Positions 4,155 through 60,219 of a stretch of DNA of 64,000 nt are shown here, in pieces. Each line of letters begins with the position of its first letter. Position 1 is the first letter of the stretch. Origin of the DNA: an uncultured Poribacteria bacterium (GTDB taxonomy: Bacteria > Poribacteria > WGA-4E > WGA-3G); assembly GCA_958296135.2 (NCBI GenBank), contig CATQHZ020000001.1, forward strand, positions 4,480,001 through 4,544,000, in the 5' to 3' direction. The notes below the pieces were generated by a model. That model made no database searches and had not been told where the DNA came from. It was given only the letters and a program-made list of their open reading frames with translations. The translations under genes were made by a program, and so were the position numbers.

Positions 4155-4268
4155 ATCTTCGGGTGAAGGACCGCGAGGGACAGGCCCTCGCGCTACAGGG
4201 GGCCGGGCATTATCTTCGGGTGAAGGACCGCGAGGGACAGGCCCTCGCGCTACAGGGGGCCGGACATT
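4155..4268. repeat. 57-bp tandem duplication, each unit carrying a family-A REP
   Basis: atcttcgggtgaaggaccgcgagggacaggccctcgcgctacagggggccgg occurs at 4155 and 4212. Confidence 0.9.
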
Positions 4269-15696: not shown

Positions 15697-15933
15697 CAAG
15701 TGAACCTCCGGGGGTAGAAACTTTCCAACTACGCCACAATTGCAACAATGACAGCGGCCAGCGCGACGATGGGAGAGAAATGGAAATCCGCGTAGCCTTT
15801 CGCGCTATCCCCCCGCTCGTTGCTTCCACCCTGACGCTTTCAAGGGAAGCGCGCTTAAAAAGCGCGCCTACCGAGATGAAGAATGCGCCCACTTTACAGT
15901 GGCAGCGCGCGCCTACCGGGTTCGGATAAGAAA

Positions 15934-16725: not shown

Positions 16726-16940
16726 GAGTAAACCTCCTCATACTATGTAGATTTGCACTGACGCAAACCACACGTCCCGTAGGTGCTGTTGAAAACCACG
16801 CCTACGGGGGGTTCCGCGTAAGTCCTACGTAGAAAAGAATTAACAACTTGTGCGAACCTCTTCCGCAAAAAAGAAGTCCGCGTTCCGACTCATGATATTA
16901 TTTTACAAAAAACGCGACAATTTGTCAAGAAAAAAAATAT

Positions 16941-18573: not shown

Positions 18574-19743
18574 ATGAAAGAACTCTTTACGATTCATTAC
18601 GCCGAAGTCGGCCTGAAAGGGAAAAATCGGGCGTTTTTTGAGAGACGGCTCGCGCAAAACATCAAGCAATCGCTGCGCGGCACCGGATACGCCTTAGTCA
18701 AACGGCTCCACGACAGGATTCAGGTGCAGTTGGAGCCGCACGCCGACATCGCCGACATCAAGAAACGCCTTAGCCGGGTGATGGGCATCGCACATTTTGA
18801 ACTCGTCTGCCGCACCGAGAAGAACATGGCGGCGATTAAGGAGACAGCCCTGCGGCACACCGAGGGCAAAACGTTTCAGACGCTGAAAGTGGAGACAAAA
18901 CGTTCGGATAAAACCTTTCCGCTGCTCTCCCCGCAAATTAGTGCCGAGGTAGGCGCGTATCTTATCCAACACACCGGCGCGCGCGCCGATATGCACACCC
19001 CAGAACTGCTCTGTCGCATCGAAGTCTCCCAAAACGCCGCCTATATTTACACGGAGAAATTGCCGGGCATCGGCGGGCTGCCTGTCGGCGTGAGTGGCAA
19101 GGTGCTGGTGATGCTCTCCGGCGGCATCGATTCGCCTGTCGCCGCGTGGCGACTGATAAAACGCGGCGCGAAAGCCGTTTTCATTCACTTTTACAGCTAC
19201 CCCTACACTGACAAAGCCTCTCTGGAAAAGGTGATGGAGTTGAGTCATATCTTGGCTGAATCGAACTATCGGAGTGCCCTTTATCTCGTTCCGTTCGCCG
19301 ATGTGCAACAAGCCATCGTGGCAGGAACGCCCGCACCGTTTCGGGTGCTGCTGTATCGGCGATTGATGACGCGGATTGCCGAACGCGTTGCGGCCCTCGT
19401 CGATGCGGAGGCGATTGTCACGGGTGAAAGCCTCGCGCAGGTTGCATCGCAGACGTTAACGAACCTGCGCGCAATTGAAGCCATCGCCGACATCCCGATT
19501 CTGCGTCCGCTCATCGGCGATGACAAAGCGGAGATTATCGCACAAGCGGAGCAGATAGGCACGTTTGCGGTATCCACGCTGCCGCATCAAGATTGCTGTT
19601 CGCTTTTCGTCCCAAAGCATCCTGCGACGCGCGCCACCGCCGCCGATTTAGAACGCGCCGAGGCGGGTTTGGACATCGAGGCATTGGTAAAAAGCGCGAT
19701 GGAGGGGATTGAGAAGCGGGTGGTGAATTTCCCGTATGAATAG
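18574..19743 (+). CDS. thiI: tRNA 4-thiouridine(8) synthase
   Basis: YAEVGLKGKNR, THUMP region, PP-loop LSGGIDSPVA, GESLAQVASQT, DCCS. Confidence 0.96.
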   Translation: MKELFTIHYAEVGLKGKNRAFFERRLAQNIKQSLRGTGYALVKRLHDRIQVQLEPHADIADIKKRLSRVMGIAHFELVCRTEKNMAAIKETALRHTEGKTFQTLKVETKRSDKTFPLLSPQISAEVGAYLIQHTGARADMHTPELLCRIEVSQNAAYIYTEKLPGIGGLPVGVSGKVLVMLSGGIDSPVAAWRLIKRGAKAVFIHFYSYPYTDKASLEKVMELSHILAESNYRSALYLVPFADVQQAIVAGTPAPFRVLLYRRLMTRIAERVAALVDAEAIVTGESLAQVASQTLTNLRAIEAIADIPILRPLIGDDKAEIIAQAEQIGTFAVSTLPHQDCCSLFVPKHPATRATAADLERAEAGLDIEALVKSAMEGIEKRVVNFPYE

Positions 19744-19909
19744 AGGACCCTCTTTACAAAAGGTTATCCACTGAGACAAAAAATTTAACTTTTTCCTTGC
19801 CTTTTTTCTTAGGATATGATAAACTTTAGTTAATTGGCAACAAGCGTGCGCGGCTGTACGTATTTTCTGTTGCGCCTATACAATATTGCTAAGCCCTCGG
19901 AGATAAGGT

Positions 19910-21910
19910 ATGAAGGTAAACATCTCACAATTGAGATCCGCTGACCTCGGTGCAGTGGACACGTTAATGAAGCGTTACAGTCAGACGCTCGGTTTTCTGC
20001 CCGGGCAAGCACTGCAAAGTTACCTTGAAAAAGGAACTGTGTTAGGAGCGACTACCGATGCAGGTGAACTCGTGGGTTACCTTCTCTACGCCGCCTATCC
20101 AAACTACTTCCGGATTACGCATCTCTGTGTATCGGAAGAATACCGAGGGAAAGGTATCGCGAAGCATCTCGTCGATGCATTAAAGATGGCTGCCGACACC
20201 CAAAAGGTTATCAAACTTCATTGCCGTCGTGATTTTCCGGCGAATGATTTGTGGCCCAAATTGGGGTTTGTCGCCATAGACGAGAAGCCTGGCAGATCCA
20301 GGGCCGGACACCGTCTGACAGTCTGGCATTTTCGGCTCGCTCCAGACGACCAGATGGAACTTTTTCAGGCTGCAACGTCTGATGATACTCTTGACATTGT
20401 CATTGATGCCCAAATCTTCTTCGATTTTGATGAGCCGGATAGCGATAAAACTCAGCCATCTAAGGCACTGCTGTCCGACTTCTTAGTTGATTCACTTAAC
20501 CTCTGGATTACGGATGAGCTGCTGAATGAAATCAATAGGCAGGAAGATCGCGAAAAGCGCGAAAACTCGCGGCGCAGCGCTCATAATTTTCCCAAAGTAG
20601 AGTCTGTGCCACACCTCATCGAAGAATTTGATAACCGGTTAAGGGACTTTCTTCCAAAGCGCAGGGCAAGCCAAGAGTCTGATATTAGACAATTAGCGCG
20701 GGCCGCCGCTTCTCGGATCAAAACCTTTGTCACCAAAGACCATGCGCTTTTGGAAGAGGCAGAGAAAATCGCGGAGTTGACCGGGCTTGAGGTAATCAAT
20801 CCAGTGGACTTAATCGTTCGACTTCACGAGTTGGCTAAAAGGCAATCCTACGCACCGGATTATATTGCAGGTTTTAACCTTCGTTGGACTCGCTTGGCCT
20901 CTAACGATCTCACCTCTCTTTCTTTTAATCCTTTTCTTCTCCTACAGGAGACGAGTGGTAAATTCAGAGAAAAATTGGAATCCTTAGTTGCGCAAGTCGA
21001 TTGTTACGAATGCGAACTTCTCCGGTCCGGGGATGAGGTTATCGCCATCCGAGTCCTCACAGTAGGTGCCAATAAGACGCTCATGTCTCCCTTGGCGAGA
21101 GTTGCACATTCTGCAGACCGGACGCTATTCGGCCGTTTTTTAATAGTCGACACAGTTTCCAAAGCGGTGGAAAAGAATCAGGACATGGTGGCATTTGAAA
21201 CTACTGAGCTCACTCCCAGCTTAATGCCATACTTGCTAGAGATGGGATTTATCGCCGGTAACAGCAGTTTCGTGAGGTTCTGCTTCTCGCGTCGTTTGCG
21301 CCGCACAGAAGTCTTGGCCGAGATCTCTGCGCTGTGCCCGGAAGCTGCACGCAAGTATCAGGACATGTCAGAGCTTGACCTTGAGCGTTGCTGCTCTCCC
21401 CTTGTTTTGAATCCGCCAGAGCAAGAATGCTTTCTGGTACCCATTCGTCCGTTCTACGCGACTGGACTGATTGACAGACATCAGTCAGGGAGAGAACTTT
21501 TTGGCGGCAACCCCAATGTCCTACTGCGCTGGGATAATGTGTATTATCGAGCCGCAAATCGTCACAGGATGCTTAAACCCCCTGCCCGAATTCTATGGTA
21601 CGTCAGCAGTCCGAGGCAACAAATCATTGCCGTGTCCGGTCTGGACGATGTCTTAATTGATACCGCTAAGGAGCTTTTCAGGCAATTCCGAAAATTTGGA
21701 ATCTTGAGATGGAGAGACCTCTACGAAATGTGCGCTCGGGATCCGTCAAGAAACCTCATGGCGTTGAAATTTTCGCACACGTTCCTGTTTCGGAAACCGA
21801 TTTCATTGGCCGTGATGAGAGAGGTAGGCATCTTGCATCCACAAGGGCCTTTGAAAATCTCGCCAGAAATCTTTCGCGAACTCTTTCAGAGAGGATATCC
21901 AAACCAATGA
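19910..21910 (+). CDS. GNAT acetyltransferase-PIN nuclease-(degenerate GNAT)-PUA/ASCH-like fusion
   Basis: LCVSEEYRGKGIA (acetyl-CoA motif A); PIN-like IVIDAQ...ELLNEI...SDIRQL...FVTKD; C-terminal VPIRPFYA...NVYYR...ILWYVSSP. Confidence 0.75.
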   Translation: MKVNISQLRSADLGAVDTLMKRYSQTLGFLPGQALQSYLEKGTVLGATTDAGELVGYLLYAAYPNYFRITHLCVSEEYRGKGIAKHLVDALKMAADTQKVIKLHCRRDFPANDLWPKLGFVAIDEKPGRSRAGHRLTVWHFRLAPDDQMELFQAATSDDTLDIVIDAQIFFDFDEPDSDKTQPSKALLSDFLVDSLNLWITDELLNEINRQEDREKRENSRRSAHNFPKVESVPHLIEEFDNRLRDFLPKRRASQESDIRQLARAAASRIKTFVTKDHALLEEAEKIAELTGLEVINPVDLIVRLHELAKRQSYAPDYIAGFNLRWTRLASNDLTSLSFNPFLLLQETSGKFREKLESLVAQVDCYECELLRSGDEVIAIRVLTVGANKTLMSPLARVAHSADRTLFGRFLIVDTVSKAVEKNQDMVAFETTELTPSLMPYLLEMGFIAGNSSFVRFCFSRRLRRTEVLAEISALCPEAARKYQDMSELDLERCCSPLVLNPPEQECFLVPIRPFYATGLIDRHQSGRELFGGNPNVLLRWDNVYYRAANRHRMLKPPARILWYVSSPRQQIIAVSGLDDVLIDTAKELFRQFRKFGILRWRDLYEMCARDPSRNLMALKFSHTFLFRKPISLAVMREVGILHPQGPLKISPEIFRELFQRGYPNQ

Positions 21911-22428
21911 CGAAAGCAACAATGCAACCCTTGCTTCTCGCCTTGAAGCCCTGTTACGCAGATATGGTTTTTGAAGGGCTCAAAACCGTTGAACTTCGAC
22001 GGCGGATCGCTTATGATATGGAAAATCGCGACGTGTTCATCTACGTTTCTAGCCCCACTATGGCACTGCGCGGCGGGTTCCACGTTGGCCACGTCTGGCA
22101 AGATTCTCCGGAAGCAGTATGGGACATAGTGTGCGATCTCGCTCAGGTGGAGAAGCGGGATTTCGACATCTATTTTGAGGGCAAAACTGTCGCCTGTGCC
22201 TTTGAAATCAGAGAGGTTTGGGAATATGAAAACCCAGTCAATCTCCACACGTTGAGGGACCAATTCCCAAACTTCGTTGTCCCGCAGTCATGGCGTTACG
22301 TCCGCGATGATGAGCACCTGTTTTTCAAGTTTTTCCGGACAACGCGTCCGAAACCAACAAAAGTCTCCCATATTGAGAAACGGCAAGGGCGAGTCCAACC
22401 GTTGCATCCTCAACACGCCTCCCTTTGA
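21907..22428 (+). CDS. ASCH/PUA-fold protein
   Basis: ALKPCYADMVFEGLKTVELRRR (GxKxxExR), IYVSSP, PQSWRY; ATGA overlap with upstream gene. Confidence 0.82.
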   Translation: MTKATMQPLLLALKPCYADMVFEGLKTVELRRRIAYDMENRDVFIYVSSPTMALRGGFHVGHVWQDSPEAVWDIVCDLAQVEKRDFDIYFEGKTVACAFEIREVWEYENPVNLHTLRDQFPNFVVPQSWRYVRDDEHLFFKFFRTTRPKPTKVSHIEKRQGRVQPLHPQHASL

Positions 22429-22444
22429 GGCGAGCAACCTGACT

Positions 22445-23545
22445 ATGGCGCGAATAAAAAAATGCAAAAAAATCTTGCTTATTCGGCTCAGTTCACTCGG
22501 CGATGTTGTGCTGACGACACCGGCCATCCGCGCGGTGCGCGCGCATTTCCCAAACGCGCATATCGCTATGCTCGTCGCGAAGCAATCCGCCGAGGTCCTT
22601 CGCGAAAATCCGCACCTCAATGAGATTCTTCGGTTTGATAGACTCGCCCCAGACAAGGATATTGGCGAGATGTGGCGGGTTATCCGCACGCTACGCGAAC
22701 GGAAATTCTCGCTGACGATTGACTTCCAAGGGAAATTTCGGACGAAGGTGTTAGCGTACCTCAGCGGTGCCGCCGAGCGTGTCGGGCGAGGAAGATTATG
22801 CACTGTCCGTGTCCCACAAGACAAATCGCAACCGGGAGAGCGCGCATCCAGAAAACACGCAACGGAGCAAAACCTCGCCTTGCTACATGCAATCGGCATT
22901 CCGGCCGAAGATCGGACGTTGGAGATGTTTCTCGCTGAATCTGAACGCGAAGAAGCAACCAAGCGGTTTGACGCAGCAGGCATCCCCAGTAGCAAGCAAC
23001 GCCACGTCCCGATAGTCGGCCTGTTTCCCGGTGCAGGGTGGAAGTTGCGGGAATGGATGCCGGAACGGTTCGCCGCCATCGGAGATAAACTCGTGCGGCA
23101 CTTCAACGCGCATGTGCTGATTTTCGGGGGCCCACAGGAAGTTGAATTGGTAGCCAAGGTCGCCGGACTGATGCACGCGTCCGCTGTGCCGTTCGCTGGC
23201 AATCTGCAGATTCGGCAGCTTGCAGCATGCCTTGAAAAATGCAGCCTCTTCCTCACCAACGATACCGGACCGATGCACATCGCCGCGGCGGTGGGAACCC
23301 CTACCGTTGCGCTGTTCGGTCCCGGCAATCACCATCGGTTTCAGCCGCTCGGCGTTTTGCACCAGACACTCCGTCACGATGTACCGTGTAGTCCGTGTAA
23401 GCAGTTCACGGATAAGTGTCAAGATAACGTCTGTATGAAACGGATTCGCGTTGATGAGGTGTGGGAAGCTGTAAGGGCGCGCTTACAACGCGTGCCTACA
23501 TTAACTGGCTCTTACCCACACGCCGCCTCAAAAACGCGGAGATGA
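22445..23545 (+). CDS. GT9 lipopolysaccharide heptosyltransferase (WaaF-like)
   Basis: ILLIRLSSLGDVV, PGAGWKLREW, TNDTGPMHIAAAVGTPTVALFGP. Confidence 0.9.
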   Translation: MARIKKCKKILLIRLSSLGDVVLTTPAIRAVRAHFPNAHIAMLVAKQSAEVLRENPHLNEILRFDRLAPDKDIGEMWRVIRTLRERKFSLTIDFQGKFRTKVLAYLSGAAERVGRGRLCTVRVPQDKSQPGERASRKHATEQNLALLHAIGIPAEDRTLEMFLAESEREEATKRFDAAGIPSSKQRHVPIVGLFPGAGWKLREWMPERFAAIGDKLVRHFNAHVLIFGGPQEVELVAKVAGLMHASAVPFAGNLQIRQLAACLEKCSLFLTNDTGPMHIAAAVGTPTVALFGPGNHHRFQPLGVLHQTLRHDVPCSPCKQFTDKCQDNVCMKRIRVDEVWEAVRARLQRVPTLTGSYPHAASKTRR

Positions 23546-58465: not shown

Positions 58466-59062
58466 TTAATGTGCCTCAACGCTTATCAATGCGAGGATCT
58501 CCTCAACCAATACCGCTTTCTGCTTCGCGCCGATAAAACTGCCAACAACCTCCCCGTTTTGGAATACGATGTAGGTAGGCGTTGCCCGAATCTCATATTC
58601 TGCAGTTTTCGCCGGCTGGGTGTTGACATCCAACTTGACGACAGCGAACGTCTCGCGATGCTCTGCCGCCACTTCCGCTACAATCGGCTTCATCAACTGG
58701 CACCATCCGCAGAACTCCGATTTGAATTCAACAACGATCGGACGTTCAGAACCTAACACAACGCTGTCAAACGTCGCATCGGTGACTTCAAACGGGATGC
58801 CGGAAGTTTCGCCGAAATGCCTCGCAACCAGCACCAAGTCTAGGATATTGACGATGTCGTCACCATTCAGGTCTGGGTTGGGGCTCTCATCCGCAGTGGA
58901 TGTCTCGCCAAAGTGCGCGGCGACGAGCGTCAAATCGAGGCCATCTATCATTCCATCGGCATTCAAATCGAGGCGCGCGACGTTGGCATCATCCGCGTAA
59001 CTTGTGCTTAACATTCCTAACGTAAAACTGAGCGTTAGGAAAAAATAAATTAAGGTTTTCAT
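58466..59062 (-). CDS. Exported dockerin-like/EF-hand + thioredoxin fusion
   Basis: Signal peptide; DLNADGMIDGLDL / DLNGDDIVNILDL; FCGWC active site; cis-Pro ATPT. Confidence 0.85.
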   Translation of the reverse strand: MKTLIYFFLTLSFTLGMLSTSYADDANVARLDLNADGMIDGLDLTLVAAHFGETSTADESPNPDLNGDDIVNILDLVLVARHFGETSGIPFEVTDATFDSVVLGSERPIVVEFKSEFCGWCQLMKPIVAEVAAEHRETFAVVKLDVNTQPAKTAEYEIRATPTYIVFQNGEVVGSFIGAKQKAVLVEEILALISVEAH

Positions 59063-59167
59063 CGTTAGGTTTTCTCCATTTTTACACGGCGAGGGACAGA
59101 CCCTCGCACAAGGTTTTCATCGTTAGGTTTTCTCCATTTTTACACGGCGAGGGACAGACCCTCGCAC
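59052..59167. repeat. Exact 58-bp tandem duplication containing RBS, start codon and a family-A REP
   Basis: aaggttttcatcgttaggttttctccatttttacacggcgagggacagaccctcgcac at 59052 and 59110. Confidence 0.92.
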
Positions 59168-60219
59168 TACGAACAGCGAGCAAGAACGGACGAGCCAAAG
59201 TGCTCGTGCCACTCCTTGATTGCCGCTGGAATAGCTTGGAGGTTTTCAATCGTGGTTTGGAGCGGGATGGCGCACTCCGGGCCGATGAGCGGCACGCCTG
59301 CCTCCAGATTTCTCACAACCTCCGCTTTCACGTCCTCCGGCTCCTTCGCAAACAAAGTCTCGGGGTTATTGATATTGCCGACGAGGGCAATCCGATCCTG
59401 AACAATGTCCATCGATTCCTGTGGTTTGTTTTTGGAATCGTAGTGGAAGGCAGCCATCCCGGTTTGCGCGATGTATTCCATCCTATCAACGGTGCGGCCA
59501 CAGATGTGCAAGATCAGCGGAATCGGAATGCGTTCGACAAATTCAATGTGCAGGTCGCGGAGGTAGCGGTGGTAGTACTCGCCGCTGACTAGGTCCCCGG
59601 TGGCGTGGTCTGGGAGAGTGAGCGCATCCGCGCCTGCCTCAATCTGCGCAATGCCGAACTGCACAGTGGCTTCCTTCATCCGGTCTAACGCGAGTTTGGT
59701 TTTGCCCGGGTCATCGAGAGACAACAACAAGAAGGGCTCCACGCCGAAGCAGTGGTATCCGAGCGACCAGGGCCCCATCGTCTTCCCAATCACGACGACT
59801 TCATCGCCGTATTCCTGCTTCAGAATCTTAATCGCATCCAACACGCATCGCGTATCCGGGTGCGTCAAGAAATCGTCAGGAATTTTGATATCGTCTACAT
59901 CTTCCCAAATCGGCTCGCGCATCCGCACCGTCGGCCAGTTATCCTTTTGCTCCCACTGAATGCTGCAACCGAGGGCACTCGATTCTTGGACGATGGTGAA
60001 GACCGGCATGATGGTATCAAAGCCGAGCTCGGTATAGCCGGTAGCAGCAAGGCGCGCCATCAATTCAGGTTCGCGATTCGCTTGCGGGAAAGGCGCATCC
60101 ACCAGATCCATCAACTCCACCGTGGCGACAGAAGTCGGGTTACAGACAGGTGTCCGGTCAGTAGGTTCGTTGCGAAGTGCGGCAAGCACGCGTTCGCGGC
60201 CGGTCATCGATTTTTGCAT
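59167..60219 (-). CDS. MtaA/CmuA-family methylcobamide methyltransferase (URO-D fold)
   Basis: MTGRERVLAAL, ILHICG Zn motif, GNINNP, GPECAIP. Confidence 0.88.
   Translation of the reverse strand: MQKSMTGRERVLAALRNEPTDRTPVCNPTSVATVELMDLVDAPFPQANREPELMARLAATGYTELGFDTIMPVFTIVQESSALGCSIQWEQKDNWPTVRMREPIWEDVDDIKIPDDFLTHPDTRCVLDAIKILKQEYGDEVVVIGKTMGPWSLGYHCFGVEPFLLLSLDDPGKTKLALDRMKEATVQFGIAQIEAGADALTLPDHATGDLVSGEYYHRYLRDLHIEFVERIPIPLILHICGRTVDRMEYIAQTGMAAFHYDSKNKPQESMDIVQDRIALVGNINNPETLFAKEPEDVKAEVVRNLEAGVPLIGPECAIPLQTTIENLQAIPAAIKEWHEHFGSSVLARCS

Follow-up and report, generated by a model that had tools for sequence, protein, structure and literature searches.

A probable GNAT-extended relative of the PIN-GNAT-PUA and ASCH operons, inserted between thiI and a glycosyltransferase gene in a Poribacteria genome

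We analysed a pair of adjacent genes, called A and B below, in a 64,000-nucleotide stretch of DNA from an uncultured Poribacteria bacterium (contig CATQHZ020000001.1, positions 4,480,001 to 4,544,000 of the forward strand; this whole stretch is referred to as the window, and coordinates are counted from its first letter). Gene A (19910-21910, + strand) encodes a protein of 666 amino acids and gene B (ATG at 21907 to 22428, + strand) a protein of 173 amino acids. Pairs of a PIN / GNAT-like / PUA protein and an ASCH protein were noted computationally over a decade ago and are now covered by the PDC-M11 systems of PADLOC; their function has not been demonstrated. Operons in which a second PUA-like/ASCH protein accompanies a PIN / GNAT-like / PUA protein are described by Matelska et al. 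2017 as PIN_15/PIN_17 (PMC5499597) and by Bell, Wolf & Koonin 2020 (PMC7641849), who both credit Iyer et al. 2013. In the accessible parts of these two papers they are presented as sporadic, associated with restriction-modification (RM) systems and sometimes accompanied by an ATPase, none of them having been characterised, and the corresponding part of PMC5499597 places the GNAT-like domain always C-terminal to PIN and without motif A. The PDC systems, as set out in the accessible part of their source, are 145 candidates, not yet assayed, that a guilt-by-embedding screen located inside BREX, DISARM and type I RM loci (Payne et al. 2024, 10.1101/2024.01.29.577857).

Judged from profile comparisons, the pair studied here appears to be a GNAT-extended sub-clade of the PIN-GNAT-PUA + ASCH operons and of PDC-M11, and present evidence does not set it apart as a system of a new kind. 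The components of the described operons were all found: an acidic PIN domain preceding a GNAT-like domain that lacks motif A, a C-terminal PUA-like domain, and an ASCH partner. Residues 160-663 of A together with B fit the described layout, in which the second protein is of the COG4933 type, and an ATPase accompanies the pair in some of the relatives that we collected. The pair departs from these operons in that a further, canonical GNAT domain with motif A precedes PIN, and in that the RM partners of its relatives are type IIG and HKD-Snf2 rather than type I; its C-terminal barrel is of the ASCH type, in contrast to the EVE type of the (PIN)-GNAT-EVE proteins in the accessible part of PMC7641849. 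Given the position that PMC5499597, in the part accessible, assigns to the GNAT-like domain, the N-terminal motif-A GNAT is an addition outside those descriptions, and the accessible parts of PMC5499597 and PMC7641849 contain no description of a GNAT-extended sub-clade.

Against the PADLOC profiles, protein B matched PDC-M11B (PDLC04425) with an E-value of 2.7e-29 over profile positions 3-126 of 132, and protein A matched two PDC-M11A profiles, PDLC04421 with its PIN part (E 2.2e-17, positions 2-157 of 486) and PDLC04422 with its C-terminal part (E 9.5e-13, positions 311-493 of 501); the C-terminal domain of A gave an additional weak match to PDC-M11B (E 1.6e-4). Like PDC-M11, the pair consists of two adjacent genes on the same strand whose relatives are likewise embedded beside RM-type systems; it differs in its N-terminal GNAT, since the PDC-M11A profiles (376-501 positions) begin at the PIN domain. 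An earlier reading of this DNA from its sequence alone (the sequence-only reading) had named PADLOC as a check, which returned matches to both proteins, and had not recognised the pair as an experimentally characterised system. This agrees with our literature searches on PDC-M11 and on the domain combinations, which found no functional study, the name PDC-M11 turning up in two strain surveys only; what that reading had missed is the family itself, which is recognisable as PIN-GNAT-PUA + ASCH and PDC-M11.

Residues 151-666 of A, used as a query against clusters at 50% identity, yielded 1494 clusters at E <= 0.001, including 566 at E <= 1e-30. Among the best 150 of the 1494 clusters, 120 had all four domains found in A (median 694 aa) and 15 had PIN / middle / ASCH but lacked the N-terminal GNAT (median 520 aa); all others were fragments. 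Named members are annotated as "GNAT family N-acetyltransferase" or "hypothetical protein" and come from Candidatus Poribacteria, Gemmatimonadetes, and plasmids of Calothrix and Nostoc. Being compact, common, and standing alone in this window, the sub-clade offers a good entry point for experiments.

Domains of the two proteins

Protein A consists of four domains, in the order GNAT / PIN / GNAT-like / ASCH-like. The sequence-only reading had pointed to an acetyl-CoA motif (RGKGIA), acidic PIN residues and a PUA/ASCH-like end in A, and to the motif GxKxxExR in an ASCH-like B. Each of these assignments is borne out below; its count of three domains for A falls short by one, the GNAT-like domain at about residues 324-495 having been overlooked. 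Structure comparisons used an AlphaFold model of A (pLDDT 77.6, pTM 0.60), and residue conservation was counted over 60 relatives, of which 57 (26-50% identity) bear the N-terminal GNAT.

The canonical GNAT acetyltransferase domain occupies residues 1-150 (19910-20359, + strand). It matches Pfam Acetyltransf_10, Acetyltransf_1 and Acetyltransf_7 above their cutoffs (E 6.8e-12 for Acetyltransf_10), and its model superposes on Ard1 (4pv6_D) with a Z-score of 18.1 and a root-mean-square deviation (rmsd) of 2.0 over 141 aligned residues, and on RimI with a Z-score of 17.9. Motif A (R/Q-x-x-G-x-G/A) is present as R79-G-K-G82-I-A84, and it is largely retained in the GNAT-bearing relatives (R/Q79 in 51/57, G82 in 52/57, A84 in 49/57). 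Among the matches listed, the closest solved structures are those of protein N-terminal acetyltransferases; aminoacyl-tRNA-acetylating toxins do not appear there. Two further segments of this domain are near-invariant in the clade, H-L-C in strand b4 (residues 71-73, 20120-20128) and C-R-R-D in strand b5 (residues 105-108, 20222-20233); their cysteines, C73 (57/57) and C105 (56/57), are unusual conserved residues near the presumed active site.

Residues 160-310 (20387-20839, + strand) form a VapC/PIN_3-like PIN nuclease domain, predicted from its intact, metal-binding acidic tetrad D166, E203, D258 and D277, which is invariant in 60/60 relatives, and from the alpha/beta domain that the whole-protein model shows over the same residues. 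Five relatives (P0279, P0285, P0290, P0369 and P0328) score 28-45 bits against Pfam PIN_3 at the homologous place (cutoff 27).

Between PIN and the C-terminal barrel, residues 324-495 (20879-21394, + strand) probably adopt a degenerate second GNAT-like fold that lacks motif A. When this middle domain was compared with the family's own N-terminal GNAT profile using hhalign, the two aligned with a probability of 67.7% (E 4.9e-5, score 32.2). Scores were 11.9 for the reversed control and no higher than 16.6 for 30 column shuffles, the control E-values were 0.035 or worse, and against the PIN and C-terminal domains E-values of 0.17-0.36 were obtained. In the model its secondary structure elements follow one another as b1-a1-a2-b2-b3-b4-a3-b5-a4-b6, the same order as in the N-terminal GNAT, and the R/Q-x-x-G-x-G/A pattern is absent at the place aligned with motif A. 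A search of the ESM Atlas with residues 315-495 returned GNAT clusters (best score 0.83), a weak lead that we did not count.

The C-terminal domain (residues 502-663, 21413-21898, + strand) is an ASCH (PUA-like) barrel of the ZmASCH type. Superposed on ZmASCH (5y6c_A), it reaches a Z-score of 16.5 with an rmsd of 2.9 over 140/142 residues, and Foldseek matched it to 5guq_C with an E-value of 3.3e-7 and a TMt of 0.76. Aligned with the profile of protein B using hhalign, it gave a probability of 83.5% (E 8e-6), with shuffled profiles reaching at most 3.9%. It lacks GxKxxExR; its Y564 (59/60) stands at the position of Y46 in B and of Tyr47 in ZmASCH. Pfam EVE (PF01878) was matched neither by A (E <= 1) nor by any of 18 relatives (E <= 0.01). 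With a profile of full-length A, the best 60 of 78 matches to PDB sequences (E <= 10) were GNAT chains only, with no PIN or ASCH chain among them, and in structure searches with the whole model, matches of GNAT folds to residues 1-156 took up the list.

Protein B (21907-22428, + strand) is a stand-alone ASCH protein of the ZmASCH type, with a core at residues 8-140 and a variable tail. A profile built from 36 homologues matched the ZmASCH chains 5GUS, 5GUQ, 5Y6B and 5Y6C at E 2e-19 over residues 7-144, and at E <= 1 against PDB it matched nothing else that was credible; YqfB was not among the matches. The motif GxKxxExR reads G24-x-K26-x-x-E29-x-R31, and K26, E29, R31, Y46, Q127 and S128 are invariant in the 36 homologues. 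Searches of domain libraries found no helix-turn-helix (HTH), ribbon-helix-helix (RHH) or AbrB match in B.

ZmASCH, from Zymomonas mobilis, cleaves single-stranded RNA in vitro in a Mg-dependent manner, with roles for Tyr47 and Ser128, as given in the accessible part of Kim et al. 2017 (PMC5615036), who deposited PDB entries 5GUQ, 5GUS, 5Y6B and 5Y6C. Protein B keeps the equivalents of Tyr47, Gln127 and Ser128, which belong to the nucleic-acid cleft, and the C-terminal domain of A superposes on the same fold; B differs from ZmASCH at Lys53, a position that is variable among its homologues. BapA, which has a ZmASCH-like barrel, strips glucose from glucosylated 5-hydroxymethylcytosine (glc-5hmC) in phage DNA, after which the DNA glycosylase Brig3 acts, so that Brig3 immunity is widened (bioRxiv 10.64898/2026.02.25.707755, accessible part). 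The likeness to BapA-Brig3 is one of working logic and not of membership: an ASCH-like barrel in a defence operon acts on a modified base for a partner enzyme, whereas BapA, in the accessible description, has two barrels, a glycosylase as its partner, and neither PIN nor GNAT. In addition, YqfB hydrolyses N4-acylcytosines according to the accessible part of a review. By the precedent of ZmASCH, BapA and YqfB, we infer that the ASCH barrels of A and B would act on nucleic acid.

The two proteins are consistently paired. The stop codon of gene A overlaps the start of gene B in an ATGA at 21907-21910 (+ strand), and the start codon of B agrees with the alignment of its homologues, which use the same start. 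In the window, and likewise in each of the 27 fetched loci in which the 3' end of A is present, B follows A directly (two of the 27 B genes had been overlooked by open reading frame picking and were found by tblastn). Two natural fusions join A and B in one chain: P0362 (820 aa) holds full-length A and B, and P0367 (530 aa) part of A and a B-like ASCH domain.

Acquisition and gene neighbourhoods

The sequence-only reading had described the pair as translationally coupled, more AT-rich than its flanks, free of repetitive extragenic palindromic (REP) elements, inserted between thiI and a glycosyltransferase gene, and furnished with its own promoter-like region, and had proposed a horizontally acquired toxin-antitoxin (TA) or anti-phage system. 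The coupling is seen in the ATGA overlap. The GC content is 0.495 in the module and averages 0.545 in the window (sd 0.015 for 2.5-kb windows), and 19751-22250 is the lowest-GC 2.5 kb within the 64-kb window; GC at third codon positions is 0.52 in A and 0.56 in B, against 0.58-0.71 in nine neighbour genes. REP-like palindromic repeat families are frequent in the intergenic spacers of the window (D1 with 10 copies, D2-D8 with many more); 19744-22445 is free of them, the nearest copies lying at 16786-16811 and 23477-23507. The promoter-like region was the one description that could not be confirmed: the 166-nt spacer 5' of A (19744-19909, + strand) is AT-rich (GC 0.386) and carries GGAG at 19899-19902, 7 nt before the ATG, and a sigma-70 scan found 0 sites on its + strand.

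Directly upstream of gene A, on the same strand, lies thiI (18574-19743, with ThiI, THUMP and ferredoxin-like domains), and 17 nt past gene B follows the gene of a family-9 glycosyltransferase (GT9; 22446-23545). This is an insertion: in 5/5 module-free relatives thiI is directly followed by the GT9 gene (G001 of the same genus; G003, G004, G006 and G007 of the same family). Another species of the same genus, G002, carries the module at the same thiI-GT9 site (locus L018), and all fetched loci other than L018 lie in different neighbourhoods, mostly among RM or defence genes. We searched for direct or inverted repeats and target-site duplications flanking the insertion and found none beyond chance-sized matches. 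The empty spacer of G001 contains a tandem duplication of about 61 nt (L038 2700-2835), and in G002 an additional HTH/antidote-like gene lies between rnhB and thiI (L018 7224-7808).

Among 41 relatives, a full-length or near-full-length A was found in 8, including the source genome, and 3 further matches covered the GNAT part alone. Across the phylum, the PIN-to-ASCH part occurs in 18/176 genomes (14/133 high-quality genomes; 6/31 genera). Protein A shares 52% identity with a copy from its own family and 62-65% with copies from another family, so that vertical descent does not fit. The empty sites, low GC, patchy occurrence and identities that run against taxonomy together support horizontal acquisition of the module. 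The family is not typically viral, as INPHARED phage genomes gave 0 matches and IMG/VR 2 loci.

Copies are often broken. Five of the 18 copies in the phylum are damaged, by a frameshift (G002), a split (G154), a split plus a TGA (G172), a TAA (G159), or reduction to the C-terminal part (G149). The frameshift in the G002 copy of A (L018 9186-11205) lies near codon 490-499, and its B is intact. In L034, L036 (59-1222 and 1532-2209) and L035, an IS110-family transposase gene replaces the first 443 codons of A, leaving a 225-aa ASCH-only remnant of A together with an intact B.

Neighbourhoods of relatives were drawn from genome searches, metagenome contigs and plasmids; a scan of genome contigs with the single protein gave 2 loci only. 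Upstream of A, on the same strand, an Eco57I-family/type IIG methylase was found in 11/27 loci (L001, L002, L013, L015, L016, L020, L021, L024, L026, L028 and L033), with PADLOC REase_MTase_IIG scores reaching E 3e-250 and gaps of at most 3 bp in L024 and L026. Among the 16 other loci, 11 hold less than 2 kb of upstream sequence or have an IS110 element cutting A. In 6 loci the methylase is itself preceded by an HKD(PLD)-Snf2 helicase gene (PADLOC C3a139, E about 1e-46 to 1e-132), and HKD-Snf2, type IIG methylase, A and B recur in this order as a tight cassette (L024 2074-13559, L026, L001, L013, L020/L021). Given the gaps of at most 3 bp in L024, the cassette may be one larger system.

Other neighbours of the relatives comprise TIR-TPR, ThsB-TIR, GmrSD, DarT + Macro, stand-alone EVE, PIN and HEC-01A/B proteins, as well as type III Mod/Res, SoFic, AbiJ_NTD4, FRG, Schlafen/AlbA_2 and transposases. 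An ABC ATPase of the mad3/AriA type directly follows B in L023, L024 and L026, and an AAA ATPase follows the pair on the Calothrix and Nostoc plasmids; on the Calothrix plasmid the pair also stands beside a 5-methylcytosine (m5C) methylase, an Eco29kI enzyme and a McrBC-like gene. In L032 (5840-9213), the genes directly downstream of A and B encode DarT, a DarG-like macrodomain protein, a stand-alone EVE protein and a PIN protein.

Functional readings

We consider it rather probable that the two genes form a self-contained conflict module that was acquired horizontally, belongs to the PDC-M11 family as a GNAT-extended member, and serves as an accessory defence linked to RM systems. A role in defence or conflict is supported by the gene context of the relatives, which reside in defence islands, and by the PDC-M11 matches, and the linkage to type IIG and HKD-Snf2 genes elsewhere suggests an RM-accessory role against phages with modified DNA. 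In such a module the two ASCH/PUA-like barrels would read a nucleic-acid feature or act on it as base-trimming hydrolases. Most likely this feature would be a modified base of an invading phage, or an RNA produced in the course of infection, and its recognition would direct or unleash the PIN nuclease. The N-terminal GNAT would add a second, acetyl-CoA-dependent activity, with protein, aminoacyl-tRNA or nucleic acid as possible targets. Overall, the module would reinforce restriction, or extend its range, where phages evade the RM system next to it. As the pair is isolated between thiI and GT9 in this window, its action cannot depend on an RM system nearby.

Several observations weigh against an RM-linked defence module of this kind. 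No family member has a demonstrated phage phenotype in the literature that we searched. The genes within 10 kb of the pair in the window are housekeeping genes (metG, rnhB, thiI, GT9 and an M19 peptidase), so that the defence context is taken over from relatives. The methylase is absent from 5 loci with at least 3 kb of upstream sequence (L014, L017, L018, L019 and L032), and the RM link is therefore not obligatory. At the level of domains, the PDC-M11A profiles cover A in two partial stretches only, with the middle uncovered; the match of A itself to Pfam PIN_3 is below threshold (E 0.14, 13.4 bits against the cutoff of 27), as is the Pfam ASCH match of B (E 0.015); and the PIN and middle-domain calls rest on sequence profiles together with the whole-protein model.

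The pair might instead be a TA or addiction module in which A arrests growth, B neutralises it, and the two stabilise an island or RM genes rather than sense phage. PIN and GNAT domains are common as toxins. TacT and AtaT are GNAT toxins of type II TA systems. With VapC-type PIN toxins and GNAT toxins the module shares the four acidic PIN residues, the acetyl-CoA motif and the form of a small mobile operon, patchy in occurrence and often decaying; the ATGA coupling and the joint presence of A and B in 27/27 loci would also suit a TA pair, and the accessible parts of PMC5499597 and PMC7641849 read the PIN-GNAT-PUA + ASCH operons as TA-like. Against this, B has no DNA-binding antitoxin domain (no HTH/RHH match) and lies downstream of A, and A is not a small toxin: both enzyme domains and two others are joined in one four-domain chain of 666 aa. 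The fusions P0362 and P0367 fit a complex better than a labile antitoxin. Weakened by the missing DNA-binding antitoxin, the gene order and the fusions, the TA explanation seems to us unlikely; the intact B beside a broken A in G002 (L018) and L034 carries little weight for or against it. From the two-sided proposal of the sequence-only reading, acquisition (empty sites, GC, patchiness) and a defence context (in the relatives) have thus stood, and the classical TA layout has not.

Returning to defence, a different chemistry can be considered, which was the idea of the sequence-only reading and follows Iyer et al. 2013 as cited in PMC5499597 and PMC7641849. Here the GNAT would acetylate a base of DNA or RNA, the ASCH barrels would recognise this mark or remove it in the manner of the amidohydrolase YqfB, and PIN would cut the unmarked or the marked nucleic acid. 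Motif A is intact and conserved, two ASCH barrels are available, GxKxxExR is invariant in B, and the family often adjoins DNA methylases, another kind of marking enzyme; ASCH enzymes that deacylate N4-acylcytosine do exist, namely YqfB and EOLA1, as stated in the accessible parts of the sources. Set against these points, the GNAT-like domain of the core family lacks motif A, both in the accessible part of PMC5499597 and in the middle domain here, from which it follows that the ancestral activity is something other than acetyl transfer. For the N-terminal GNAT, the nearest folds listed among solved structures are protein N-terminal acetyltransferases and not nucleic-acid acetylases, and B matches the RNase ZmASCH, with YqfB not among its matches at E <= 1, which does not exclude a shared chemistry. 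We also know of no acetylated base in the source organism, and regard such a marking system as quite improbable. There is a similarly slim chance that the module is an acetyl-CoA-dependent immune effector or marker, in which sensing of a modified or foreign nucleic acid by the two ASCH barrels would be followed by acetylation of a base or of a charged tRNA and by PIN cleavage, B being a base-trimming or deacetylating hydrolase like BapA or YqfB, so that the whole would form a restriction-like add-on to type IIG RM systems built on acetylation instead of methylation. Should the GNAT indeed act on nucleic acid, bacterial immunity would gain a chemistry new to it; otherwise the pair would be one more accessory nuclease module.

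That the two genes have a housekeeping role in RNA metabolism together with thiI, be it in tRNA modification or in quality control, is extremely unlikely. The position just behind thiI on the same strand, and the action of ASCH/PUA domains and of ZmASCH on RNA, would suit such a role. The empty sites (thiI and GT9 contiguous in 5/5 relatives) and the patchy distribution (18/176 phylum genomes) contradict it, only G002 shares the thiI site, the GC is deviant and copies are often broken.

Other features of the window

An open reading frame on the minus strand (21886-22263, 125 aa) lies wholly within the A/B coding region and is probably spurious. A search of 19000-23000 against Rfam gave no match at E <= 1, and a look through sequencing runs listed none of RNA. 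The REP-like palindromes of the window are GC-rich, belong to at least two families and lie in spacers, among others at 1266-1363, 4155-4268, 15849-15879, 23477-23507 and 59052-59181. One family has the core GCGCGCTTnnAAGCGCGCCTAC and occurs in 10 copies; the other has the core GCGAGGGACAGGCCCTCGC and occurs in more than 20 copies, partly arranged as tandem pairs.

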